A stretch of DNA of 64,000 nucleotides from an uncultured Candidatus Peribacteria bacterium (GTDB lineage Bacteria > Patescibacteriota > Gracilibacteria > Absconditabacterales > Absconditicoccaceae), in the NCBI GenBank assembly GCA_964545415.1, contig CAZJFP010000001.1, positions 9,786 through 73,785 on the forward strand, in the 5' to 3' direction. Numbering within the stretch: the stretch's first letter is position 1; every line of letters starts with the position of its first letter. The position numbers and the translations under genes are program-made. The notes beneath the pieces were generated by a model. That model did not search any database. It was not told the DNA's origin and saw only the letters and a list, made by a program, of their open reading frames with translations. Shown in pieces: positions 11,076 through 55,235 of the stretch.

Positions 11076-11483
11076 CTACACTCTTTTCTGACAGAATCTA
11101 TTATTGACCCATTTCCAGGATTTCTCGAATTCCTCTTGGATATATGTAATTGTATCTTTTTTTGAAAAATTTGCAATTTTTTTCTCTATCTCCGGGATAC
11201 GATCCTTGGAAATAACGATAAATATTTTGTAGAACGTATCATAGATAGGATATTTTACGAGATTGTGCTGCTGTATACGTTGAATGATTGCCCTCTTGAT
11301 CATATGTCTAAATACCGATCTTTTGGATAATTTGATCGTAATATGACAAGAAAACTGATTGTAGTTTACGCCAGGATACTGTTTTATATAGAAAAATCCA
11401 AACAACCCCTGACTGAGATATTGTCTTTTTCTCGTGATGAAGATCACGTCTTTGCCTGTTAATCTCTGTTTTTGTGGTAACAA
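11076..11483 (-). CDS. rnpA: Ribonuclease P protein component
   Basis: The N-terminus LPQKQRLTGKDVIF plus the basic composition and size (135 aa) are typical of RnpA. It uses a TTG start. Confidence 0.75.
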   Translation of the reverse strand: MLPQKQRLTGKDVIFITRKRQYLSQGLFGFFYIKQYPGVNYNQFSCHITIKLSKRSVFRHMIKRAIIQRIQQHNLVKYPIYDTFYKIFIVISKDRIPEIEKKIANFSKKDTITYIQEEFEKSWKWVNNRFCQKRV

Positions 11484-11509
11484 AACGATTCTATTACTAT
11501 ATAAATTTA

Positions 11510-11593
11510 GATGGGATAGATGGATTGGATGGGATAGATGGGATAGATGGGATAGATGGATTGGATGGGATAGATGGATTGGATGGGATAGAC
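11510..11593. repeat. Tandem 9-nt repeat array (GATGGRWTW units, about 9 copies)
   Basis: The array reads gatgggata gatggattg gatgggata gatgggata gatgggata gatggattg ... It lies between rnpA and the DUF192 gene. Related words occur at 18481-18556 and 21447-21545. Confidence 0.85.
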
Positions 11594-11628
11594 AGATCTA
11601 ACCAGTTTCAAAATCAGTCTAATCCGTC

Positions 11629-12099
11629 TTATTGTATATTTACGAATCTCATCGTCGTTCCCTCAGCAATTCAATGTTTAGCAGCCATCCCTGCATTGAT
11701 TTCCAAAACATATTTTGCTGTTTTGCCTGGTTGGTAGATAGGACATGGATCCGCTGTGCACGGTTCTGCGGTATGTATTTTCACGACATTGAAGTTTTCA
11801 TCTATCCAGAGCATATCCAAAGGAATCAGAGTGTTTTTCATCCGAAAATCATAGATATCTGCTATTTCAAATACAAAAAGCATTCCTGACATCTCAGACA
11901 TCGATTCACGATACATCAATCACCTTTGATGTTCTTCCTGTGTACGAGCGACCTCTACCACAAAGCATTGATCATCTCAGCATACCTTCGGTTCATCATT
12001 ATTTTGATTCCATATAGTCATACATATGACTGCAATAATGCAAAATCCAATTATGAATCGTATTCATTGTCTTTTTACAAAATTCCGTTTGTTTTTCAT
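11629..12099 (-). CDS. DUF192 domain protein
   Basis: This 157-codon ORF is joined through TGA. It has an N-terminal TM segment and the motifs EEHQRGLMYRESMSEMSGMLFVFE and IPLDMLWID. Confidence 0.7.
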
Positions 12100-12231
12100 G
12101 CTAAATTACCTATATAGTTAAATGATTCTAGATGCTAGATTCAAGATTCAAGAACTATTATGTAGCTACACTGTACTTGAATCATGCATCATACATCATG
12201 TATCAATTTTTTATTTGTTTATTTATTTTTC

Positions 12232-14680: not shown

Positions 14681-15058
14681 ATGAACGAAGAGGAAATCAG
14701 ATATAAAGCATATAATAGAAGCAATATTGATTCTGCAAGAGAAATGAGAAAGAATCCGACACCAGCTGAAGAGAAAATACGGAATGAGATACTTAAGCAT
14801 AGACCATGAGGATATAAATTCACCAGACAAAAACCTATATGATCGTTTATAGTTGATTTCTATTGCGCTAAACTTGCTTTGGCTATTGAACTTGATGGGG
14901 AAGTTCATAAGAATAATAAGGAATACGACAAAGAAAGAACCTCTTTCTTATCTTCAAAATGAATATCGGTAATAAGATATCGAAACAATGAAGTCATTAA
15001 AAATATAGATAAGGTTTATAAAGATATCCTGAATTATATACAAGAGACTGAAAAATAG
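14681..15058 (+). CDS. DUF559 endonuclease-domain protein (Vsr-like fold)
   Basis: AREMRKNPTPAEEKIRNEILKHRPGGYKFTRQKPIGSFIVDFYC ... AIELDGEVH matches the DUF559 pattern. It contains 3 in-frame TGA codons and ends at TAG 15056-15058. Confidence 0.75.
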
Positions 15059-18192: not shown

Positions 18193-19572
18193 ATGCAACC
18201 ACTCAATTTTTCTCTCATCAATCTCTGATGCACCAAGAACCTGGTCGATAGCCAATATTTCCTTGGTAGACTTTTTGATATGAGCATGAAGTCCCATGAC
18301 TATCAGATAAATTATTTTGCCGATCCCTTCGATAAAGAGACGAAATTTGTATTTGTTAATACATGTGGATTTATTTCGTCTGCAAGAGACGAAGCTGATG
18401 AAACAGTGCAACAGCTTTTGGAAGCGGGAAAGACTGTGTATTTGCTTGGATGTGCTGTACAGTATTACAAAAAGCTCATGAAAATAGACGGAATGGACGG
18501 AATAGATAGAATAGGACCTATCTCATCCAACCCGTCTAATCCATCTGGTCTCCATTATTTGTCCCGAGGCGATGTGAATAAAGTAAATCTAAAAAATATC
18601 TTAGCATGATACGATAGCAAAAGTTACGGCGATTTTGAATTTGCTAGCTCGCCGAGAGTCTATACTAACATAGAACAAAAGTTTGAATATCTCAAAATCG
18701 CAGAATGATGCGATAATCATTGCACGTTCTGTATCATCCCAGACATCAGAGGAAAGCAACAATCGCTCCCGATGGAACAGATTTTGAACGAAGCGAAGCA
18801 GATGATCGCAAACGGCATCCAGGAAATTATTTTGATAGCGCAAGATACGACGAGATACGGAAGTGATCTTTACGGTGAGCCGAAATTATTGGAATTGTTA
18901 AAAAAGTTGGATAAGCTGAAATGAGATTTTCAGTACAGACTCCTCTACTTGTATCCGGATATCGTCACGCTGAAACAAATCAAAGAGCTGAAAATATTGA
19001 AAAAGTTTATCCCGTATTTTGATATTCCCTTGCAACATATTAGTTCACCGGTCTTGAAAAAAATGGGAAGATTCTATGACGAAACATATATCAAAAAATT
19101 TTTGGATCAGATCAAAGATTCCTTTCCGATCAGATTTGTGAGAACGAATTTGATCATCGGATTCCCCGGCGAAACGAAGGAAGACTTCAAAAAACTGATG
19201 AAATTTATCGACGAAACAAAGTTCGATAATATCGCCCTGTTCGAATATCACGATGAGCCGCTAGCGGCTTCAAGTAAATTACCGAACAAAGTTTCTGAGA
19301 GTGAAATCAGAGCGAGATTCACGAAAATCAGACAGCTGGTGAATAGGCAATTGCTCGAGAGAGAGAACGACAGAAAATGAACCCAGGAAGTATGATATAT
19401 TACCGAATTTTATTCTGAATTCTGAACTCTGAATTCTGAATTAATAGTCCGTCCGCGATTGCATTGTCCAGAAATCGATGAAGTGGATGAAATTAGTTTA
19501 CCACAAGTTATCGGGACGTTCGATGAGAAAAAGGAGTTGGAAATAGGCGATAAAATAGTATATACTTTATAA
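18193..19572 (+). CDS. rimO: Ribosomal protein S12 methylthiotransferase
   Basis: It has the MTTase N-domain ([14 protein letters not shown]), the radical-SAM motif [31 protein letters not shown], and a TRAM-like C-terminus. The ORF is 459 aa and is joined through TGA. Confidence 0.8.
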
Positions 19573-19576
19573 ACAC

Positions 19577-19738
19577 CGTGCCGTACGTCATTCCGGGAAC
19601 TAATACTACACCACATCATTCCCGGAAACTAATACTACACCACGTCATTCCCGACCTGATCGGGAATCCAATTCGCTATGTAGCAAGATGGATTCCCGCT
19701 TTCGCGAGAATGACGCTGAAAAGTACGGGAATGACGTT
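19577..19738. repeat. GC-rich palindromic repeat cluster (GTCATTCCCG ... CGGGAATGAC words)
   Basis: It has a direct repeat (cgtcattccgggaactaatactacaccac, two copies), the hairpin gtcattcccgacctgatcgggaatcc, then ggattcccgctttcgcgagaatgacg and cgggaatgacg. Confidence 0.75.
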
Positions 19739-19774
19739 GCTGGAACATAAAATTTTACCTTCTAAATTCATTTC

Positions 19775-20650
19775 ATGGCTCTTACTCCCGAGCTCCAGAC
19801 TATTGCGGATACGTTAAGACAAGAAAAGGTCATCGGTTTATTGGCGCCGAGTTTCCCGGTGGATTTTTGATATCCGGAGATCATCATCAATCTCAAGATG
19901 ATCGGCTGCGAAAAAGTCGTCGAACTCACCTACGCTGCGAAGTTGATAAATATGGAATACGAGAAAATCCTCAAAGAGCATCCTGATAAACAATATATCT
20001 GTCCCAACTGCCCTACTATCGTGAAGATGATAGAATTCAAATATCCAGAGCTCAAAGAAGATATCATCAATGTCGCATCGCCCATGGTCGTTATGCATAG
20101 ATTTGTAAAAAAACAATACGGTCCCGACTGGAAAACGCTTTTTATCGGACCATGCCTAGCGAAGAAACTGGAAGCGAAACAATATGGCATCGATTACGCT
20201 ATCACATTCAAAGAATTACAGGATATTTTCGATTATTATAAAGAGAACAATATCCCGTCCAAGGAATTTACCTTTTCTGTCACCGAAGACGGCACGCCCG
20301 ATTTCGATAAATTCTACAATGATTATACTAAAGTCTATCCGCTCGCTGGATGAGTCGCTGATAGCATGCATTACAAAGGTATCCTGACAAAAGATCAGAT
20401 TCTCGTAATCGACGGACCGAAAGAGATAGATGCAGGCATACAGGAATTCAAAAACAATAAAAACATCAAATTCCTCGATATCTTAGCCTGCGAATGATGA
20501 TGTATCGGCGGACCATGAATGATGTCCAAGGAGCCGTTGGAAGTAAAAAAACAGAAAGTTCTTGAGTATAAACACTATTGTAAAAAAGATAAAATCTGAT
20601 CCAAACTCGGCAAGTTCGAATACGGAGAAGGACTCGATATCACCAGATAA
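19775..20650 (+). CDS. [FeFe]-hydrogenase large-subunit C-terminal-domain-like protein (stand-alone, 291 aa)
   Basis: It has APSF..., ICPNCPTIVKMIE, FIGPCLAKKLE and DILACEGGCIGGPG. These resemble the three H-cluster cysteine motifs. The two glycines after ACE are TGA. Confidence 0.65.
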
Positions 20651-20654
20651 ATTT

Positions 20655-20785
20655 AATGAAAAATTAAAAATTAATAATTAATAATGAATAATGTTGGTGT
20701 CGCATATTTATTAGCTATTGTAAAATTACAATAGTTCATTTGAGCAATTCTGCCATCATTCATCTTTCATTTTTCATCATTCATT
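20655..20785. repeat. ~130-nt palindromic intergenic element, family B, copy 1
   Basis: The left arm is aattaataatgaataatgttggt, the central mini-palindrome is ctattgtaaaattacaatag, and the right arm is catcattcatctttcatttttcatcattcatt. The right arm abuts the hemW ATG. Confidence 0.8.
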
Positions 20786-22123
20786 ATGTTAAGTCTCTAT
20801 ATCCACATACCGTTCTGTGCCAGTAAATGCGCCTATTGCTCGTTCAATAGTCTGCCTATTTTTCTATTAGATAATTACGAATTACAAATTACGAATTATG
20901 TTGAAGCGTTGAAAAAAGAAATCGATCATTACGCAGAAAAACTTTCTGACAAGGAAATAAAAACATTATATATCTGATGATGAACTCCGAGTAGGATCGG
21001 TATCGAGAGAATCATCGATATCATCGACTACCTCAGAACCAAATTCGATTTTGAAAATATCGCGGAATTGAGCATAGAGTTGAATCCTAATCCAGCCGAA
21101 GAAGTGTTGTTGTTCGTCGATACGATCAGCAAAAAATATAAGGAGTTTCCGAGAGTGAGATTTAGTTTTGGTATCCAAAGCCTCGACGATGAAGTTCTGC
21201 AGATGACTTGAAGAGCATACAATTTCACGCAGATAGCGGAGTTTCTTAGAGAGCTAGTGAAACACAAAAAAGAGAATACTGTATTCAATTTTGACTTCAT
21301 CGCCTTCGGCAAATTCCAGGTCAGCAAGAACGGCCATAAGCAGCTCCGGCACGAATTCAAACGCAATTTTTTGAAAGATTTTTTAAACAGTGGATATGCG
21401 GATAGTATCTCTTTGTATACCCTGGAGAATATAAAAGACAAGAAAAATGGATTAGACTGTATAGACGGATTAGGGCGTCCTTCTATCCCATCTATTCCAT
21501 CTATCCCGTCTATCCCATCTATTCCGTCCAATCCGTCTTATTATTGAACTGATGACGAGATCATGGAAGAGTTTCAAATACTGAAAAAAATCGTCGAAGA
21601 CGCGGGCTACCAAAGATATGAGATCTCCAATTTTGCACATGCTGGCAAAGCTTCCATCCACAATATGGCTTATTGGAAGATGGAGAATTACATAGGTTTT
21701 GGAGTCTCAGCAAGTTCTTTTTTAATGCAGAGTGCAGAATGCAGAATGCAGAAATCTTTCCCTGATTCTCTTGTCCTCGAAGGAGGGAAATCCTGAACTC
21801 TGAATTCTGAATTCTGAATTCGTCGAACGAATACATGAGATATCAAACAATATATCGAAGGAAATCGAAGAGATGAAGAGGAAGTTCAAACGTTGAATGA
21901 GTCAGATATATTGATAGAAGAATTTTTCCTTGGACTCAGGACCAGGGAAGGACTCGCCGATATTTCAAGATACGCTCCGGTGCTTGTTTCCAATTACGAA
22001 TCCTTGATCGCTAGCTATCAGGACGAAATGTTGGTCAATTTTGATGGAAAAAAATTACAGCTTACGGATGAAGGAATGAACCTCTCCAATACCATCATCA
22101 CGGACCTGTTGCAGAAACTATAA
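20786..22123 (+). CDS. hemW: Radical SAM heme chaperone / coproporphyrinogen-III-oxidase-like
   Basis: It has YIHIPFCASKCAYCSF, YIGGGTPS (GGG = three consecutive TGA at 20975-20983) and YEISNFAHAGKASIHNMAYW. Four track fragments share frame 2. Confidence 0.8.
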
Positions 22124-29961: not shown

Positions 29962-29971
29962 ATGCTTCGCA

Positions 29972-30093
29972 AATTGAAAATTAAAAATTAAGAATGAATA
30001 ATGTTGGTTTTGCTGAAACGAACTATTGCATTCTACAATAGCAAATAATAAGACAAAACAAAAATCATTCATCTTTCATTGTTCATCATCCAT
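29972..30093. repeat. Family B element, copy 2
   Basis: The sequence aattaagaatgaataatgttggt ... ctattgcattctacaatag ... atcattcatctttcattgttcatcatcc has the same architecture as copy 1. Confidence 0.8.
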
Positions 30094-30113
30094 TTATATA
30101 GTTATATAAAGTC

Positions 30114-42977: not shown

Positions 42978-43047
42978 TTATATAACAAAAAGGCGAATGA
43001 TATTCGCCCCTACATTTTTTTTTGAATTCTGAATTATGAATTCTGAA

Positions 43048-43584
43048 TTAATTTACTATCTTGTGCATTATTCAGTTAATGAGCTTCGGTGCTCATTCAT
43101 CAGAATAACGCTTTGCAAGCTCGATCATTTCATTGAGCACCACTTCTTTCGGGGTATCCAACTCTTTTCGTTCGGTATACCCAAGCAAAAATATTGCCTG
43201 ATCCAAAGGATCCATCTGATGATATCCGAATGTTTGGATATGTTCATCTACTTTTTGTTCAATCTCTTCTCTATATTTCGTGAAATGGATACCGACCTTG
43301 GATATGTAATCGAAATCGATATCTTCAGCTGGCCGTTCATCAAAGAAACAGTCAGCAAATTCTTTGAAATCTTCCAAAGTATATATCTTCACATACTTTT
43401 CTATTTCTTCCTTGAGCTTTTCTTTTTCCTTGTCATACATCCCCGCATCGGTTTTGAAGACATAATCAATGAATAATGAGTCAGTAAGCACTTTATCCTG
43501 TTGCATCAGATTAACAAAAAAACAATGCTGATACAAATAGGATAACACTATTTTTCTCGCATTGATTCTTTGTTTGATATTCAT
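43048..43584 (-). CDS. nusB: Transcription antitermination factor NusB
   Basis: It has INARKIVLSYLYQ ... LDQAIFLLGYTE ... ELAKRYSDEGAPKLINGIMHKI. Two in-frame TGA codons lie near the 3' end, and the real stop is TAA at 43048-43050. Confidence 0.75.
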
Positions 43585-43682
43585 GAGCTGGGAATAATGA
43601 ACTAAAGAACTACTTCGCAATTTCTAATTTTCAATTTTAAATTTCTAAATTCTGAACTCTACATTCTGAATTCTGAATTAAT

Positions 43683-43913
43683 TTATGCGTCTACTACTTT
43701 TTCCTTGCTCTTGCTCTTGATCGTCAATACTTGTTTCCCTTTGTAATATCAGCAAACTGGACAAACTCTGTGAGAGAGCTTCTTAGCTCCACAGTTTTTG
43801 CATACGGAAATCTTGTAGGTATCTACCATTCTTTGGATATTTAATCCTTCCCATGTCGAATGCCTCTGGCGTCCTTTTGCTTGGGAAATTTTCTTTTTTG
43901 GTCCGATTGTCAT
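43683..43913 (-). CDS. rpmF: 50S ribosomal protein L32
   Basis: This 76-aa ORF is not in the track. It has KGRQRHSTW ... [23 protein letters not shown], with the Gly in CGYY encoded by TGA. Confidence 0.8.
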
Positions 43914-44370: not shown

Positions 44371-47300
44371 TTATTCTTGAATATCTATTCCGTGATCTTT
44401 TCTGTAAATTTCACCTACTGGCAAGAGTCTTCCAATAATAACGTTTGACTTCAAATCGGAAAGCATATCTATAGATCCTTTCAGTGATGAAGCAACCATA
44501 ACTCTGATTGTCTCCTGGAAAGATGCTGCAGAAAGCCATGAATCCGTCTCTTTTGCAATATTAGTCAATCCGAGTGCCAATCTTTTTCCTTTGGCAGCTT
44601 TCTTGCCTTCTGCTTCCAATTCCTGATTTACTTTGATAAATTCTTCATATTTGATGTATGTTCCTGGAATGAAACTACTATTTCCTGAATCTTCTATAAA
44701 GACTTTTGAGAACAATTGTTTGACGACCACTTCGATATGTTTATCATTAAGATCCTGTCCTTGAGCTCCATAAACCTTTTTAGTCTCCTTGATGATGTAT
44801 TTTTGTGCTTCAAGGTCTCCAACAATATCTTTGTACTCTTTGATGGATAATGCTCCTGTTGTCAGAATTTCTCCTTTGAAGACATCTTCTCCATCCTTTT
44901 TGATAGCATTGAGTCCTGTAACCGCTTTTACATATTCTTCTTGAATACCGAGAACGATATGATCAGCTTTTACTTCCAACACTTTTCCGCCTTCCTTTAC
45001 CTTGAGTTTGCTCTTTCCTTTGGATGCGAATATTCATCCTTTTTTCACTTCTTCCCCCTTTTTTACATCTATTTTGTACCCTGGTTTGAGTAAGTAGTTT
45101 TTTTTCTGATATTCAGAGATCACTTTCACATATCTAACTTTATTGGCTTCATAGAAGGAAACTTTTCCGTCAAATGGGGTGATAATAGCAGGCATTTTTG
45201 GATCTCTTACTTCAAACAATTGTTTTACCCTATCGATACCTGTTGTTTGTTCTCATCATTTTGCGACTCCTCATTCATGGAACGTATCGAGTGTCAACTG
45301 CGTTGATGGTTCTCCAATAGATTGCGCAGCAATGATTCCGACAGGTACTCAGATCTCAACTATTCTTCTTGTAGAAAGATCTGTTCCGTAGCATTTTTGA
45401 CAGATACCGCTGATACTGTGACATACTAATGGCGTTCTTACCTTCACCTCCTCTATTTCCATATCCTGGAGCAATTTGACATTCTCCTTATCCAAGAGAT
45501 CGTCCTTACTCAAGATAACATTTTTTTTCTTATCCAATACATCTTCTGCAAGTACTCTTCCAGCGATAATAGTGTAGAAATTCTCCCCTTTCATCTCAGA
45601 TTCCTGTTTGGAGAAAATGACATATTTTTCTGTTCCGCAATCATGTTCCCTGATGATAACTTCTTGTGACGCATCACAGAGTTTTCTCGTCAAATATCCT
45701 GATTCCGCTGTTCTCAATGCTGTATCCGCTTTTCCCTTTCTTCATGCATGCGCGGAGATGAAATATTCAATAGGTCTCAATCATTCAACGAAAGAGTTTT
45801 TGATCGGCAACTCGATAATCTCTCCTTGAGGATTAACAACTAGACCCTTCATACCTGCAATCTGCGTCATATGCGTCTGTGATCATCTCGCTCATGAATC
45901 AACCATCGTATAGAGATCCTGTCCTGGTCCAGTAATGGACTTCAAGCTCTCCTCTATCTTCTTTTTGACATCGGTCCAGATCTTAATGATGAACCTATGT
46001 TTCTCCTCTTCAGAAAAGAATCCTTTGAAATAATATTTATAGATTTCATTTGTCTTGAGATCACCTATTTTCAGTTCATCTTCTTTTTCTTTAGGCACCT
46101 TCATATCCAAGATATTTACTGATGTGGATCAGAGCGTAGCGTATTTGAATCCAAGATCCTTGATATCATCTGCGACATAGACAGTTGTCTGCATATCATA
46201 TTCATCAAATATCCTACTCAAGAGTTTTTTTAGGTCTTTATTTTTTAGCTTTGTATTGATAAATCTGATTCTTTCAGGAAGGATAGAATTGAAAATAACT
46301 CTTCCTACTGTGGTTTCTATAGGTTCTTTGTTATAATTGAGCAGTATTTTGTCTTTTACGAAGATCTCTCCGTTACCATAACTGTCCAATACATTTTCTA
46401 TGCTTGGAAAAATTCCTATAATAGGTTTTTTCTTTCGTTCCTCTTCTGTAGTATATTGCGGTGTTCTCTGATCATAAAAATCCGTAAGATAATACGCTCC
46501 AAGCACCATATCCTGGGAATGAGCGATAGTAGGATCTCCTGAACCTGGCTTCAAAATATTTTTGTCAGCTGCAATCAGCTCTCTTGCCTCTTTCTGCGCT
46601 TCGTCAGAAATAGGCAGATGGACTGCCATCTGATCTCCATCAAAATCGGCATTGAATGAAGGACATACTAATGGATGGATACGGATGGTCTTTCCTGGCA
46701 TCAATCTAATCTTAAATGCTTCGATGGACAACCTATGTAATGTCGGTGCACGATTGAGCAGAACATATTTGTCTTTGATCACTTCTTCGAGGAATTTCAA
46801 TGCTAATGGCGATTCTTCTTTGATGAGTTTCTCTGCCTGTTTAGGGGTATATACTATTTTCTTTTCGATAAGTTTTCCGATGATGAACGGCGTAAACATC
46901 TTGACCGCGATATAGATCGGCAATCCGCATTCATCCAATTTGAGCTCAGGACCAACGGTAATGATAGACCTTCCTGAATAATCCACTCTCTTTCCGAGCA
47001 AATTCTTTCTGAAGATACCTTCTTTTCCTGAAAGCATATCTGACAATGATTTGAACACTTTGATACCAGCTCCGCTGCTTCCTGCTGCACCTGCTTTTTC
47101 TCCAACCAACAAATTATTTACTGATTCCTGGAGCAATCTGATTTCGTTTTTCTTGACGACATCAGGCATTCCGACCTGGATCATTTTTTTCAATCTGATA
47201 TTTCTCATCAGTACGCGCCTATAGAACAGGTTAACGTCAGATGATGCAAATTTTCCTCCTTCCAATTGAACTACTGGTCTCAAATCAGGGGGTATGACTG

Positions 47301-48189
47301 GCAATTTTCTGATTACCATATTTTCTGGCTTAACACCGGAAACATGAAGATTGATCAATAATTTTATCAATGCAATCAATTTTTTTCTCTGCTCCTCTGA
47401 TTTGGTGTCTTTGAATATTTGGATCGTTTTTTTGATCTCTTTCTCTACATCGATATTTTGGAGCATCCTCAAAATTGATTCAGGTCCTGATTGGAATATG
47501 ATAAGGTTGGAAAATCTGGAGAAGATATTTCTGAAATCGTTTTCGAAGATAGTCGATCCTACATCTAAATCAGAGATAATAGATTTTATCCTATTGAATT
47601 CTTTTTCAAGTGTATCCTTATTGTCGTTGAAAAGTTTTTCGAGTTCTTTGAGTTTCTTTGGATTCTCTTTTTCTTTGGCAGCTTCTTCTTTGTAGAGGGT
47701 CTCAAGTTCTTTGATTTTGTTATCAAAATCCTCTTTGATCTTTTCCTTGATCTTCTTATCAAAATCTTTGTCCAGTTTCTGGACCATAATATATTTTACA
47801 AAGCTCAAAATCTTGTCTATCTCATTGGAAGAAAGACCGAGCAATTGATTGACTCCTCCTGATGGACTTGCCTTATACCATGCATGCAAAACAGGGACAG
47901 CTAATTCGATATGCCCCATCCTAGATCTCCTCACTCTCGAACTCGTGACTTCTACTCAACATCTTTCACATACGATTCCCTTATATCTTACTCCTTTGTA
48001 CTTACCACAGCTACATTCGTAATTTTTCACTGGTCAAAAAATGGATTCACAAAACAATCAACCTTGTTTAGGTTTCCCTGTCCTATAGTTGACTGTATCA
48101 GGATTATCCACTACACCATGAGACCATTTCTCGATGTCTTCCATCGCAGCAAGCCTAACAATCAATCCCTCGAATTTTGTTTTGTTCAT
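44371..48189 (-). CDS. rpoC: DNA-directed RNA polymerase subunit beta'
   Basis: Five track fragments share one frame of 1273 codons. It has the N-terminal zinc-finger region ([23 protein letters not shown]) and [12 protein letters not shown]. Confidence 0.95.
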
Positions 48190-48225
48190 ACTACGCTCCT
48201 TAGTAAGAAAATAAACGACTTATTT

Positions 48226-48304
48226 CTTAAGTGCTAAGTGTTGAATGCTAAGTGTTAAGTTGTGGTATTTTTTTATTTAGAACTTAGCACTTAGAACTTA
48301 GCAT
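48226..48304. repeat. Long hairpin with 7-nt-periodic arms between rpoB and rpoC
   Basis: The left arm is taagtgc taagtgt tgaatgc taagtgt taagtt. The loop is T-rich. The right arm is tttagaa cttagca cttagaa cttagca. The arms are largely complementary. Confidence 0.75.
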
Positions 48305-48311
48305 AATAGTT

Positions 48312-51300
48312 TTATTCAAGTTCACCAAAGTCTTCCATCTCTTGGATCACGTTATCGATAATCTCTTCTTTTTCCTGTCCGGTTGTATCTCCTTCCTCTT
48401 CAATAACTGTAGCTTCTCCTTCACCCGTGATGGTACTCTTCATAACACCAGAAAGCCCTAGATTAACGATTTTCTTGATCCTATCTTCCTGGACAACTTC
48501 CAACTCTTCTACCGTCAATGGCTCTATATTCTGACAAAGTCATTTGAATAGGTACGTCAACAAATTGAATGATTCAGGTAATCCACCAATCTTTGGTTTC
48601 TGTCCCTTGATGATAGATTCATATAATTTATTTCTTCCGATAACATCATCTGATTTGACGGTCAACATCTCTTGCAAGGTATAGACTGCAGAATATGCTT
48701 CCAATGCCCAAACTTCCATCTCTCCAAATCTCTGACCTCCTTGTCTGGACTTTCCTCCGAGCGGTTGCTGGGTAATCAATGAATATGGTCCTACAGCTCT
48801 TGCATGGATTTTATCCTCGACCATATGTACCAATTTGAGGATATGCATATATCCTACGGTCACTTTTTGATCATATTTCATACCGTTTGCACCATTGTAG
48901 ATATCAAATTTCAAATCATCGAATCCACACATCTTGGTAAGTTCCGTCAAATCTTCAGAAGAAAATTTGGAAAATGTAGGAACCGCAAAACTTACACCAA
49001 AATGCTTAGCGATAAATCCTAACTGAGATTCAAATAGCTGTCCCATGTTCATACGAGAGATTACTCCGAGAGGATTGAGACATACATCTACTGGTTTACC
49101 GTCTTCGGTAAACGGCATATCCTCTTCTGGAACAACAATAGAGATAATACCCTTGTTTCCATGTTTTCCCGCTAATTTATCTCAGACTTCGATCTTTCTC
49201 GTACTTGCGACATAGACTTTGATCTTCTTTCTCACTCCTGCCATAAGATTATCTCCTTTTTTTGCATCGAGGATGACCACATCGATCACTTTTCCTTCAT
49301 TGCTTCCTGATGGTACATATAATGAAGTATCTTTTACATTTTTTGATTTATCTCCGAAGATTGCTTGGATCAACTTTTCTTCTGGCGTCAGTTCTCCTTC
49401 AGATTTTGGCGTGATCTTTCCGATCAAAATATCTCCTCATTTGACGATAGATCCGATTCTGATTACTCCATCATCGTCCAAATTTTTGAGCTTGATCATA
49501 GAAACTCCTGGGATATCGTTTGTTGTTTCTTCAGGCCCAAGTTTGGTATCTGCTACCTCTATTTCGTATTCATCGATATTTATGGATGACAATTCATCAT
49601 CTTTTACCAATCTCTGTGAGATAACAATCGCATCCTCATAATTGTATCCTTTCCATGGCATAAACGCTATCCTCAGATTCTTTCCGAGTGCCATTTCTCC
49701 TTGTACGGAACATGGACCTTCAGCGATAAGATCTCCTTTTTTTACTTTTTGTCCTAATGACACTCTAGGGACCTGATGCATACATGATTTACTATTTGAT
49801 CTTGCGAATACTATCAGTTGGTATTCCTTTATTCCCGTCTTATATTTTATCTTGATTCTCTTTCCATCAACATAAACCACTTCTCCTTCAGCTTCTGCTT
49901 TGAGTACTGCATGAGTCATCTGTACGATATCTCTTTCCAATCCTGTTCCTACCAAAGGTGCGTCATTTTTCAATAACGGCAATGCTTGTCTCTGTTGATT
50001 GGTAGCGATAGATGCACGCACCGCATCGTTATGATCAACGAATGGAATCAATGAGGTGTTCGGTGAGAATATCTGTGATGGATTGACGTCGATATGTGTA
50101 ACATCTCCTACATGGAACATACCCATTTCATTGAATTGTCTTGCAGCAACACGGACATCCGTCATATTATTATATGCATCGATAGGTGTAGTTGCATCAG
50201 CTATACAGCATTTTTCATCCATTTCTGGCGAAATATACTCCAACTCGTTGGTGAAAAACGGTTTGACAGCAATGGTTGTTCCTAGTTTTCCATATATTTT
50301 TTCTATCTCTTTTGCTGATTTTTCATCGATATAATGATCTTCTTTGACTATTACTCTCTTGAGTTGTTTCCCTTTGGCATCCAATTCATGGATATCACGG
50401 TGAGCTATCCTATTGATCAATAATTCTTTTTTGGGAGCTACTTCACGAGCAATCTTGAGTGCTGGCGTTTCCAAAAATCATTCATCGTTGACACGAGAAT
50501 ACAATGATTGGTAAATTACCAGTCCGATATTTTGTCCTTCAGGTGTTTCGATAGGACATATTCTTCCATAATGCGAAGGGTGAACATCACGCACTTCGAA
50601 TTTGGCAGTTTCTCTTTTGAGTCCTCCAGGTCCAAGGGCAGTGATTCTTCTTTTATGTTCGATTTCTGATAGCGGATTGATCTGATCCAAAAACTGAGAT
50701 AATTGTGAAGTTGCAAAGAAACTCTTGATAGCATTATCTATAATCTTGAAGTTTACCAAATCAGTAATTTTGAGCGGACTTTCCAAATTCAAGATAGAAA
50801 GCTTTCCCTTGATGCTCTTTACGAATTTTCTCATGACCGGCTGCAGATGTGCATAGAGGATCTCTCCCATGGATCTGATACGTTTATTGGAAAGATGATC
50901 AGAGTCGTCTGTATAATATCATTTTTTAAAATTTGAGATATTGAATAAGTATTTCAATGCTCCTACAAGATCTTCACCATCGAAGATATTGGCAACATCA
51001 CCATCGAGTGGCTTCTTGATTCCTAATTTTGCATTCACTTTTCTTCTGGCAATTCTTCCCATAAAGATTCTCTCTGGAGAAAGGAATTGATTCTTGATAT
51101 AATTGAGCGCACTTTCCTGATCGATCAATTCGCCTGGTCTGACTTTGTTGTAGACAAATTCCGCTGCAGATAAAGCGTCGGTAGTACTATCTTTTTTGAG
51201 TGTTGTTTCGAGATAATTGAAATCTTCCTCATCAAACGTATCCTTGAAGAGTTCTCTAATACTTTCATCTGTCTCTAATCCAAAAATCCTGAGCAATGTC

Positions 51301-52088
51301 GTGATAGGAAATTTTCTGGATTTATTGATTCTTGCTACTACGACTCCAGATTTTTCTGTCTGGACTTCCAACCATGGTCCATTTTCAGGAATAACCTTGA
51401 ATGAATATCTAAATTCCTTTTTAGCAAAAAATATACCATATGATCTTATGATCTGGGAGATAATAACTCTCTCAACTCCATTGATAATATAGGATGCAGA
51501 CGGCGTCATTAGCGGTAAAATACCGATATTTGCACGTTTGCTGAAGAGCGTTTTTTCCGTTTTCTTCTTACCATCATCACGGACTTCATTGAGTTTTACT
51601 TTACCAGTAATGATACCTCCATAGGTCAATTCTTTTTTCTTACAGGTTTTTACATCATCGATAGGCTCAGAAATTTTGATATCATCTATCTCTACATACA
51701 TCTTTTCACCTGCTATATCCCATACTGGATTAATACTATCAAAAAGCTTATTCGTATATTTTTTGATAAAGTCATCATATCCTCTTTTCTGTAAATCAAG
51801 CAAATCAGGGAATCCGGCGAATTTTCTCGGATTACGCAAAAATATCCTCTCTCCCTCCCTATAGAAGTCTTTGAAGATTTCTGGTATCCTGATAGGTTTA
51901 CTAGGTTTGCTTATCGCCTTGGTCGGTTTAGTGAGAGACACCTTGACTGCAGCTTTTGGAGCGGCTTTTGGAGCGGCTTTTTTAGCTGGTTTATTCGTCG
52001 CTTTCGGTGCTGATTTCACTGATTTGACTACTGGTTTCTTTGTCTTTTTTATTTCTTTTTTCCCTTGAGAAGATTTTTTTTGTGTCAT
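48312..52088 (-). CDS. rpoB: DNA-directed RNA polymerase subunit beta, with K/A/P-rich N-terminal tail and acidic C-terminal tail
   Basis: Six track fragments share one frame of 1259 codons. Motifs are [23 protein letters not shown] and [16 protein letters not shown]. Confidence 0.95.
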
Positions 52089-52345: not shown

Positions 52346-52385
52346 TGTACTATATTGTTAAGTGGTAAATTCTACTTTTGGTACT

Positions 52386-52434
52386 AGGTAGAAGGTATAA
52401 GGTATAAGGCCTTGTCCTTTATCCCTATTCCCTT
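52386..52434. repeat. Short hairpin with 7-nt word arms upstream of rpmH
   Basis: The sequence aggtagaaggtataaggtataagg faces ccttgtcctttatccctattccctt. Confidence 0.6.
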
Positions 52435-52445
52435 GTCTCTAATTA

Positions 52446-53844: not shown

Positions 53845-53960
53845 CAATTAATAATTTAAAATTAATAATGAATAATGTATGATTTGTTTAGTTATTGACT
53901 ATAGCCTACAATCGCAATTGTCCCATCATTTTTCATTGTTCATTATTCATTTTTCATTTC
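53845..53960. repeat. Family B element, copy 3
   Basis: The sequence is aattaataatgaataatgtatga ... cctacaatcgcaattg ... catcatttttcattgttcattattcatttttcatt. It overlaps the 3' end of CDS 53943..54413. Confidence 0.75.
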
Positions 53961-54413
53961 TTTTTTTGGTTCTTCCATTTTAACTTCGAAGAGGGTCATA
54001 ATTCGCCCGCCTAGTGCATGGAATATCGCCATCTTACTTTGTTCCTCGATAGTATATTTACCATCTCGGGCACGTTTGATGAATATACCCATAAAAACCA
54101 CCATTACAATAACCAAAAATATCGGGAGATACTTGATGATAGGGAGTAGCATAAATACAGAAGTCGCTACCACTAGAAGCAGAAATATTGCCCACCATCC
54201 CAATGCTTGCTTGAGATGAAAAGATTCAAAATCACTCTTCTTTTGGTTATTGAGCGCTACGACGATGATTCCTATCAGGAGATACATCATCACTGCTCTC
54301 TTTTTCTCCGTACTGCTAGGCGTATACACCTCTTTGGAAGGTGATGCGGCAGCAATCGTTTCTAACGTTTGCCCAACAGCGTCGGACTTGATTGGTTCTT
54401 CCATATGCATCAA
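53943..54413 (-). CDS. Small integral membrane protein
   Basis: This 156-aa ORF has three hydrophobic segments. Its last codons overlap the right arm of a repeat element. Confidence 0.55.
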   Translation of the reverse strand: MMHMEEPIKSDAVGQTLETIAAASPSKEVYTPSSTEKKRAVMMYLLIGIIVVALNNQKKSDFESFHLKQALGWWAIFLLLVVATSVFMLLPIIKYLPIFLVIVMVVFMGIFIKRARDGKYTIEEQSKMAIFHALGGRIMTLFEVKMEEPKKEMKNE

Positions 54414-55117: not shown

Positions 55118-55235
55118 AATGTTTACGATTTGATAAAATAAAGTGAATTTGGAATTTATAATTTGAAATTTGCAATTTGAAAACGCATATACATCGTTTT
55201 ACAATTTACCATTTCGCCTTTCAAATTCAAAATTC

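Follow-up and report, generated by a model that had tools for sequence, protein, structure and literature searches.

The stretch of DNA analysed here (64,000 nucleotides (nt) of contig CAZJFP010000001.1, from an uncultured bacterium assigned to the Absconditabacterales, referred to below as the window) carries on its forward strand a gene for a RimO-like methylthiotransferase, in which two short segments belonging to repeat families of the intergenic spacers lie in frame. A hemW-like radical SAM gene 1.2 kb downstream of rimO contains three repeat elements in frame. The features of the rimO gene are given here, with the means by which each was recognised.

18193..19572, + strand: rimO-like methylthiotransferase gene, 459 amino acids (aa), TGA = Gly, 7 in-frame TGA codons (table 25 translation)
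18481..18549, + strand: segment 1, an imperfect palindromic repeat element of 69 nt, 23 codons, aa 97-119 (Tandem Repeats Finder (TRF), arm complementarity, orthologs)
19412..19442, + strand: segment 2, a CTGAATT array with CTGAACT as second unit, 4.4 copies (TRF period 7, 91% matches)
19423..19425, + strand: in-frame TGA, Gly411, inside the segment 2 array (table 25 translation)

The open reading frame (ORF) at 18193-19572 is open only with TGA as a sense codon, that is, under code 25, which candidate division SR1 and Gracilibacteria are known to use, and the named orthologs are SR1 or Absconditabacterales. Three conserved glycine columns of RimO hold TGA or GGN in 79/80, 80/80 and 78/80 orthologous loci, respectively, and four of the window TGA codons align with glycines of Thermotoga RimO; judged by these columns, TGA is read as glycine in the window genome. 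No tRNA was found in the window, and hence no tRNA-Gly(UCA) there. Pfam assigns UPF0004 to aa 7-95 and Radical_SAM to aa 169-339 of the protein, and the Pfam TRAM model gave no match in it. The cysteines C173/C177/C180 (CxxxCxxC), C58 and C87 are invariant in the RimO alignment. The top PDB match, both by sequence (phmmer) and by predicted fold (Foldseek, template-modelling (TM) scores 0.72/0.77), is Thermotoga maritima RimO (4jc0), which has the three-part architecture and the cluster-binding cysteines in common with the window protein. A UPF0004 domain, a radical-SAM core with CxxxCxxC, a C-terminal TRAM-like domain and a RimO as the nearest structure together give the architecture of the family. 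The TIGR00089 (MiaB/RimO subfamily) model passes its cutoff of 251 with 283 bits, while the TIGR01125 (RimO equivalog) model reaches 322.6 bits, below its cutoff of 356.95, with RimO still the top-scoring family, a shortfall plausibly caused by divergence plus the inserts. The gene is under purifying selection, the ratio of non-synonymous to synonymous substitution rates (dN/dS) being 0.12-0.16 against three close relatives.

Both segment sequences quoted in an earlier note on this DNA were found in the window. Segment 1 starts where that note placed it, ends about 7 nt before the end given there (18556), and lies within the linker that joins the N-terminal and radical-SAM domains, as had been proposed. 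Its left arm has a period of 9 nt and 3.6 copies (18483-18514, TRF), and its right half is an imperfect reverse complement of the left, the arms being complementary at 22/33 positions. Segment 2 corresponds to aa 405-417 (EFYSEFGTLNSEL), and the array itself encodes SEFGTLNSEL. The CTGAATT array runs through all three frames, so that a TGA in frame is unavoidable; code 11 closes it and code 25 leaves it open, and TGA = Gly allows it to be read through, in agreement with the claim that the in-frame TGA is tolerated as a sense codon. In an AlphaFold2 model of the ortholog P0001 (mean predicted local distance difference test (pLDDT) score 78.7), segment 1 is an interdomain loop with pLDDT < 50 at aa 98-117 and no secondary structure, and segment 2, with pLDDT ~80, is a hairpin tip in the TRAM region, where aa 398-407 and 416-420 are the strands and 408-415 the loop; loop positions of this kind agree with what had been expected. 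Compared with Thermotoga maritima RimO, the interdomain linker of the window protein is ~18 residues longer, whereas the TRAM hairpin is comparable in length, the window's being encoded by the heptamer array.

Relatives of the two segments lie in the following parts of the window.

11506..11630, + strand: spacer copy of the 9-mer palindromic family, with 9.4 units in its expanded left arm (TRF; compact ortholog in L036)
20786..22123, + strand: hemW-like radical SAM gene, 445 aa, with the same repeat families in frame (Pfam Radical_SAM + HemN_C)
20873..20898, + strand: AATTACG x3.7, a heptamer array in the 5' part of hemW (TRF; ortholog alignment)
21449..21537, + strand: 9-mer palindromic element in hemW, in frame (TRF; inverted repeat)
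21724..21821, + strand: heptamer-armed palindrome in hemW, (AATGCAG)x4.3, a 35-nt spacer and (CTGAATT)x4.7, the CTGAATT array at 21789-21821 (TRF)
43021..43052, + strand: CTGAATT-type heptamer array, intergenic, downstream of nusB (TRF, sequence search; NusB by domain assignment)
43618..43684, + strand: heptamer array, intergenic, upstream of nusB, ending CTGAACT-CTACATT-CTGAATT-CTGAATT (TRF, sequence search)

The two spacer arrays to which segment 2 had been likened are real, and the 12-mer CTGAATTCTGAA, allowing at most 1 mismatch, occurs 13 times in the window against 1.2 expected, a count reached in 0/100 shuffles. The unit order CTGAACT-CTGAATT-CTGAATT is common to rimO and hemW, and the 43650 spacer array has it interrupted by one diverged unit (CTACATT) after CTGAACT; this shared order argues for copying of segment 2. 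The 9-mer family has three copies in the window, two of them within genes (rimO, hemW), and the spacer of L036 orthologous to the intergenic one holds a compact form of the 11508 element (...GGATTAGATAGAATAGG-TTT-CTATTCC...). A strict scan of 83 related loci for the GGAATAGAC 9-mer family gave no copies beyond the window's species cluster, and one copy that it missed was recognised by eye in the alignment, in hemW of L006, a different species with a RimO 77% identical. This hot-spot element has the centre GGAATAGATARAAYAGGACCTATCYCATCCAACCC matching segment 1, the two centres being nearly identical (GGAATAGATAAAACAGGACCTATCCCATCCAACCC in L006 vs GGAATAGATAGAATAGGACCTATCTCATCCAACCC in the window), and the family is read in the same frame in rimO, hemW and L006 hemW, as DG[IML]...PS[IN]. 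These likenesses show that the segment 1 family consists of dispersed copies.

Period-7 arrays of at least three copies number 24 in the window, against a mean of 0.125 and a maximum of 1 in 40 dinucleotide shuffles, and period-9 arrays number 4 against 0.15 in shuffles. Long ORFs hold 4/24 of the heptamer arrays (one in rimO, three in hemW), though ~90% of the window is coding. The earlier description of these families as otherwise intergenic is thus mostly right for the heptamers, but hemW, which carries both families in frame, goes against it. The heptamer palindrome of hemW (21724-21821) has a DNA fold z of -3.1.

Orthologs were gathered as 120 SR1 proteins (50-91% identity, protein search) and as 80 loci from a genome scan translated with code 25, and length statistics were taken from 68 full-length SR1 orthologs. 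The standard deviation of RimO length is 19 aa at aa ~91-115, 26 aa at ~401-420 and 0 over most other positions. Neither segment is conserved RimO sequence in the alignment of the 120 proteins and the translated loci, as the insertion claim required. A minimal form of site 1 occurs in 9 species, where the window has 37 residues between the same anchors, and a minimal form of site 2, VGYITEIYKGTLVVRP, occurs in 13 species, where the window has 22. Minimal orthologs lack both segments, and their site 2 reads EIYKGTLVVRP, with KGTL at the segment 2 position. Segment 1 is restricted to the window's species cluster (P0001, P0121, P0123, P0127, L036); P0002, which is 82% identical, has a 7-residue minimal linker instead, and L002 likewise lacks the segment. 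Segment 2 is present in the window's cluster and, in a diverged form, in L003/L006. It qualifies as an insertion against the minimal SR1 orthologs (+6 aa) and hardly so against Thermotoga maritima RimO, relative to which only ~1 residue is added; the SR1 minimal forms have a shortened hairpin, which is restored by the array.

In other species the same two RimO sites are occupied by heptamer arrays (L003, L008, L014, L015, L023, L025), by 8-mer arrays (L020, L032) or by tandem-armed palindromes (L008, L023), and both sites of L080 contain a GTCATTCCCGC...GCGGGAATC palindrome that is read in frame. HemW orthologs have two hypervariable sites of their own with the same pattern as RimO, and minimal HemW orthologs are without the heptamer-armed palindrome. 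In nearly all of the 81 loci translated, the ORFs are continuous through inserts of 3 to ~500 nt.

A palindromic element at the RimO sites is found without DUF559 in L015, L031 and L034, and with an in-frame DUF559 endonuclease ORF in L019, L049 and L065, which looks like an autonomous/non-autonomous pair or a homing-type insertion. The peptide of the DUF559 (PF04480) element ends PTLNPSPLHGEG ... WRGxGGEV and is in frame with RimO or HemW; the loci that bear it are L019 10001-11776, L049 10001-11839 and L065 10001-11809 for rimO, and L031 from ~12643 onward for hemW. The window itself has a free-standing DUF559 gene at 14681-15058, directly upstream of uvrB.

The behaviour of these repeats over short times can be followed in L084 and L087, close relatives with ~90% identity to the window in hemW and 99.8% identity to each other. 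Relative to the window, their hemW 9-mer element is shorter by 9 nt in the left arm and by 27 and 18 nt in the right, and the spacer of their hemW heptamer palindrome is 18 nt shorter; between the two, hemW differs by one 9-nt unit despite the 99.8% identity. The three hemW heptamer arrays keep their copy number in these relatives and show point changes only. A heptamer array in the FeHyd-hemW spacer is 7 nt (one unit) longer in the window than in close relatives. Over ~20 kb of synteny, coding indels of at least 3 nt are confined to the hemW repeat segments and have lengths divisible by three, the exception being an unexplained 8-nt gap in gene 14. In genes the 9-nt arrays vary freely, while 7-nt arrays are frozen there but variable in spacers, a picture of selection filtering slippage.

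We consider it highly probable that the two segments are copies of spacer repeats inside rimO, lying in frame at permissive loops and kept there by a selection filter. Short-period repeat elements, with units of 7 nt and less often of 8 or 9 nt and often with two inverted arms, crowd the spacers of the SR1 genome. They would be copied or seeded at many genome sites, and in needed genes the copies that survive would be those that are in frame, free of TAA and TAG and placed in permissive loops, a step for which the orthologs provide part of the evidence; such survival accounts for the presence of different repeats at the same two sites across SR1 species. The arrays would then change by slippage of whole units, which is frame-neutral for 9-mers and frame-breaking for heptamers, and therefore heptamer arrays inside genes would be frozen in copy number. 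The segments would most likely be translated and kept as a flexible loop and a longer hairpin, without a dedicated function.

A competing explanation, which we hold to be possible but rather unlikely, is that one or both segments arose in place, by slipped-strand duplication of local rimO sequence, and that their likeness to spacers reflects a genome-wide slippage bias towards 7-nt and 9-nt periods. Such an origin would fit the great diversity of heptamer units (91 canonical types among 173 arrays), since periodicity, and not sequence, is what stays constant, and it would also fit the whole-unit array changes between close relatives; moreover, polymerase slippage has been proposed for the excess of heptanucleotides in prokaryotes, in a passage of PMC4679880 that cites Mrazek et al. 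2007. At segment 2, the ancestral Gly-Thr codons TGA-ACN fall at the sole variant unit, CTGAACT, yet the order of that unit followed by CTGAATT x2-3 recurs in rimO and hemW and, interrupted, in the 43650 spacer. At segment 1, the minimal linker D-Q-G-I (GAC CAA TGA ATA) resembles the 9-mer GAC GGA ATA, whereas the DGI seed is absent from minimal hemW sequences, and the centre of the segment is nearly identical to the hemW element of another species and related to an intergenic element.

Several points count against reading the segments as translated copies of spacer elements. Neither a transposase nor a terminal signature or target-site duplication was recognised, no transposase search having been made outside the window, so that the copying step is an assumption; on inspection of three filled sites and the minimal alleles there was no clear case of a target-site duplication. 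The ancestral hairpin-tip codons TGA-ACN (Gly-Thr) lie in the middle of the segment 2 array, and L003/L006 have an orthologous diverged array, TCTAAAC CCTGAAC TCAGAAC TCTGAAC (79% identical), so that for segment 2 in-place growth may fit as well as insertion. The fold of segment 1 has z = -1.4 (RNA) and -1.6 (DNA), with 15-18/200 shuffles equally good. The structural model was made on P0001, which is 91% identical and has both segments, with W at the TGA positions and with a 48-sequence alignment. Finally, translation of the segments and their retention in mRNA and protein are inferred, on the basis of reading frame, selection and comparison among relatives.

The earlier note had also called segment 1 hairpin-capable, which holds weakly, its arms being partly complementary and the fold no better than that of shuffles; a functional hairpin in segment 1 was accordingly dropped. 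A second candidate, constraint on the segments at the nucleotide level, was suggested by their few differences (2/69 in segment 1 and 0/39 in segment 2, vs ~8% gene-wide) and was dropped as well, because a profile in 30-nt bins places both within longer low-divergence tracts; the low divergence is attributed to mosaic recombination tracts and not to segment-specific constraint. Against L001, L084, L087 and L036, the divergence of rimO is mosaic, bins of 30 nt with 0-1 differences alternating with bins of 5-9, and the N-terminal 40 residues of the window RimO match L003 and not L001/L002. This mosaic points to frequent recombination among related SR1 populations.

That the rimO heptamer array is a contingency switch, a phase-variation device in which a gain or loss of 7 nt turns RimO off or on, is very improbable. 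Contingency loci classically consist of an intragenic repeat with a unit length not divisible by three, a type also discussed in PMC4679880, and close relatives do show a one-unit difference in one heptamer array of a spacer. Against this, both segments are equal in length, and the array with them, in the five full-length sequences, which come from different samples (window, P0001, P0121, P0123, P0127). The contigs L001 and L084-L087 show the same array length, and since they carry P0001, P0121 and P0123, they add no further independent evidence. The array has merely ~4 units, the three heptamer arrays of hemW have undergone point changes only, and substitutions have degraded the orthologous array of L003/L006 without breaking the frame. 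Phase variation was rejected, as no length variant was seen among cluster members or related contigs.

Still less probable is the removal of the segments before the mature protein is formed, by an intron, translational bypass or intein-like excision, which would leave RimO unmodified. Segment 1 is able to fold into a hairpin, and bypass of the T4 gene 60 type involves hairpins. Rfam, however, gives no family at rimO (its only family in the window is an L10 leader elsewhere), and at 23 and ~10 codons the segments are far below intein size. The inserts at both sites are in frame and stop-free in nearly all of the 81 translated loci, and the indels of coding copies are multiples of 3, 9 or 18 nt, compared with 7 nt in the spacer array; an excised element would need none of these properties. 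An assembly or binning artefact, by which repeats were wrongly joined into rimO, has a negligible probability even though metagenome assemblers can be misled by short repeats, because both segments are found at the same positions in independent assemblies from several samples or sources (L001, L084-L087 and P0127 from ENA; L036, a contig cut at RimO aa 267, confirms segment 1 only), with flanking divergence of up to 8-10% among assemblies.

Under the preferred explanation, in which spacer repeats were copied into rimO and filtered by selection, the two hot spots act as natural 'insertion scans' that show where RimO, and likewise HemW, tolerates extra peptide. There are also consequences for annotation. 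Family models and gene callers lose score on such genes or split them, the RimO model falling below its cutoff here, and pipelines that use code 11 end RimO prematurely at aa 139. Depending on the source, protein database entries give W or G for TGA, and gene calling with code 11 yields RimO fragments of 109 aa. A 54-codon ORF at 11437-11601 (…RWDRWIGWDRWDRW…) is the intergenic 9-mer array in another frame and would be a spurious gene call. Many records of metagenome-assembled genomes with an SR1-type RimO and in-frame TGA=Gly (L004, L006, L008-L011, L036 and others) bear the title 'uncultured Candidatus Peribacteria bacterium', probably through mislabelling.

The spacers of the window contain further repeats of this kind. 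An element of ~140 nt has four copies with 74% column identity (20648-20790, 29962-30100, 53845-53965 and 56425-56562), laid out as an AATAATG-type heptamer array, TTGG, a central CTATTG...CAATAG palindrome and an inverted heptamer array (TTCATNN). The copy at 56425-56562 has the Rfam L10 leader (56556-56686, minus strand) on one side and the start of rplJ on the other, and is therefore probably transcribed in a 5' untranslated region. AATAATG arrays upstream of hemW also occur in other species. Heptamer arrays paired in inverted orientation, which form long AT-rich hairpins and may act as terminators, stabilise mRNA or have no role, lie in the spacers at 48228-48303, 12120-12208, 52383-52436 and 55145-55235; the first of these is located between two large genes, 44371-48189 and 48312-52088 (probably rpoC and rpoB), and the stretch 48220-48310 has a DNA fold z of -3.5 and a T-rich loop.

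The spacer after rimO (19573-19775) consists of GTCATTCC(C)G-type repeats; a unit of 29 nt is present in 2.3 copies at 19588-19653, and 19661-19698 is an inverted repeat. In L001, L084 and L087 a heptamer-armed palindrome (GAAATTT...CAAATTC) takes the place of this block, and from this difference in content it follows that whole spacers are swapped between near relatives. Repeats of the GTCATTCCCGC...GCGGGAATC or GTCATTCC(C)G type were also noted at sites 1 and 2 of the L080 and L033 rimO genes. Across the SR1 loci compared (L004-L083), period 7 predominates among short tandem repeats, with 164 arrays vs 36 of period 6 and 53 of period 8. The density of period-7 arrays is 3-8 per 10 kb in close relatives of the window and ~0 in oral SR1 (L041) and more distant Gracilibacteria, a contrast which shows the heptamer bias to be specific to the window's clade.

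Some known classes of small repeats resemble the SR1 elements in different ways. Like REP/BIME, Correia and MITE-like (miniature inverted-repeat transposable element) sequences, they are small, of non-coding size, palindromic and multi-copy, and in-frame fusions of MITEs with host ORFs are occasionally documented, according to a passage of PMC10969869. The SR1 element differs in being wholly palindromic, with no terminal inverted repeats distinct from the body, and in an arm length that varies by slippage.

Over-represented heptanucleotide repeats are a known class in prokaryotes, and the SR1 heptamer arrays fall within it, having head-to-tail 7-nt units in at least 3 copies, an excess over chance and a length polymorphism in whole units. 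The cyanobacterial STRR repeats are one comparison. The over-representation of such repeats was reported by Mrazek et al. 2007, as cited in a section of PMC4679880 that also treats the TAACTGA repeats of Beggiatoaceae and cyanobacteria. Both groups have tandem 7-nt units, mostly in 3-6 copies, are strongly over-represented and rare in ORFs, and are concentrated in spacers, often immediately 5' of start codons. On the other hand, the SR1 units are very diverse (91 types) with no single dominant heptamer, many SR1 arrays are inverted pairs that form long AT-rich hairpins, and several are predicted to be translated within essential-type enzymes.

The earlier note had compared the rimO segments with the Rickettsia palindromic elements, and the likeness holds for the mode of working and not for membership, since size, architecture and taxon differ. 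As summarised in the portion of PMC10969869 that draws on Ogata et al. 2000 and 2002, Rickettsia palindromic elements are dispersed repeats found in frame in unrelated housekeeping genes at fold-compatible positions. Likewise, the window elements are multi-copy and dispersed, lie in frame in unrelated genes and stand where the fold tolerates them. In both cases, as far as that summary goes, short repeats occur both between and inside unrelated housekeeping genes and are read as extra peptide, and the bearer is a host-dependent bacterium with a small genome. The Rickettsia elements are ~100-150 bp long and encode a conserved peptide, and the SR1 segments, of 69 and 31 nt, are much shorter. The SR1 elements come from another phylum with another genetic code, and no sequence relationship or membership is claimed; their arms consist of tandem units of 7 or 9 nt and can grow or shrink, segment 2 has a single arm in one orientation and is not a palindrome, and one SR1 family depends on TGA as a sense codon.

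In-frame colonisation of essential-type genes by repeats, whether selfish or born of slippage, has so far been treated largely as a Rickettsia peculiarity, and a literature search gave no description of such repeats or in-frame elements in SR1 or other Patescibacteria. On balance, we lean towards the broader reading that one clade of Absconditabacterales (SR1) has its own counterpart of the Rickettsia 'protein-coding palindromes': diverse elements with arms of 7-9-nt tandem arrays that would repeatedly have colonised permissive loops of RimO and HemW and then changed by unit slippage, some with an in-frame DUF559 ORF, the reading of TGA as Gly enlarging the set of readable repeats. A second, independent case, in a candidate-phyla-radiation lineage with a reassigned stop codon, suggests that what is known from Rickettsia may be a general outcome of small, repeat-rich, weakly purged genomes.

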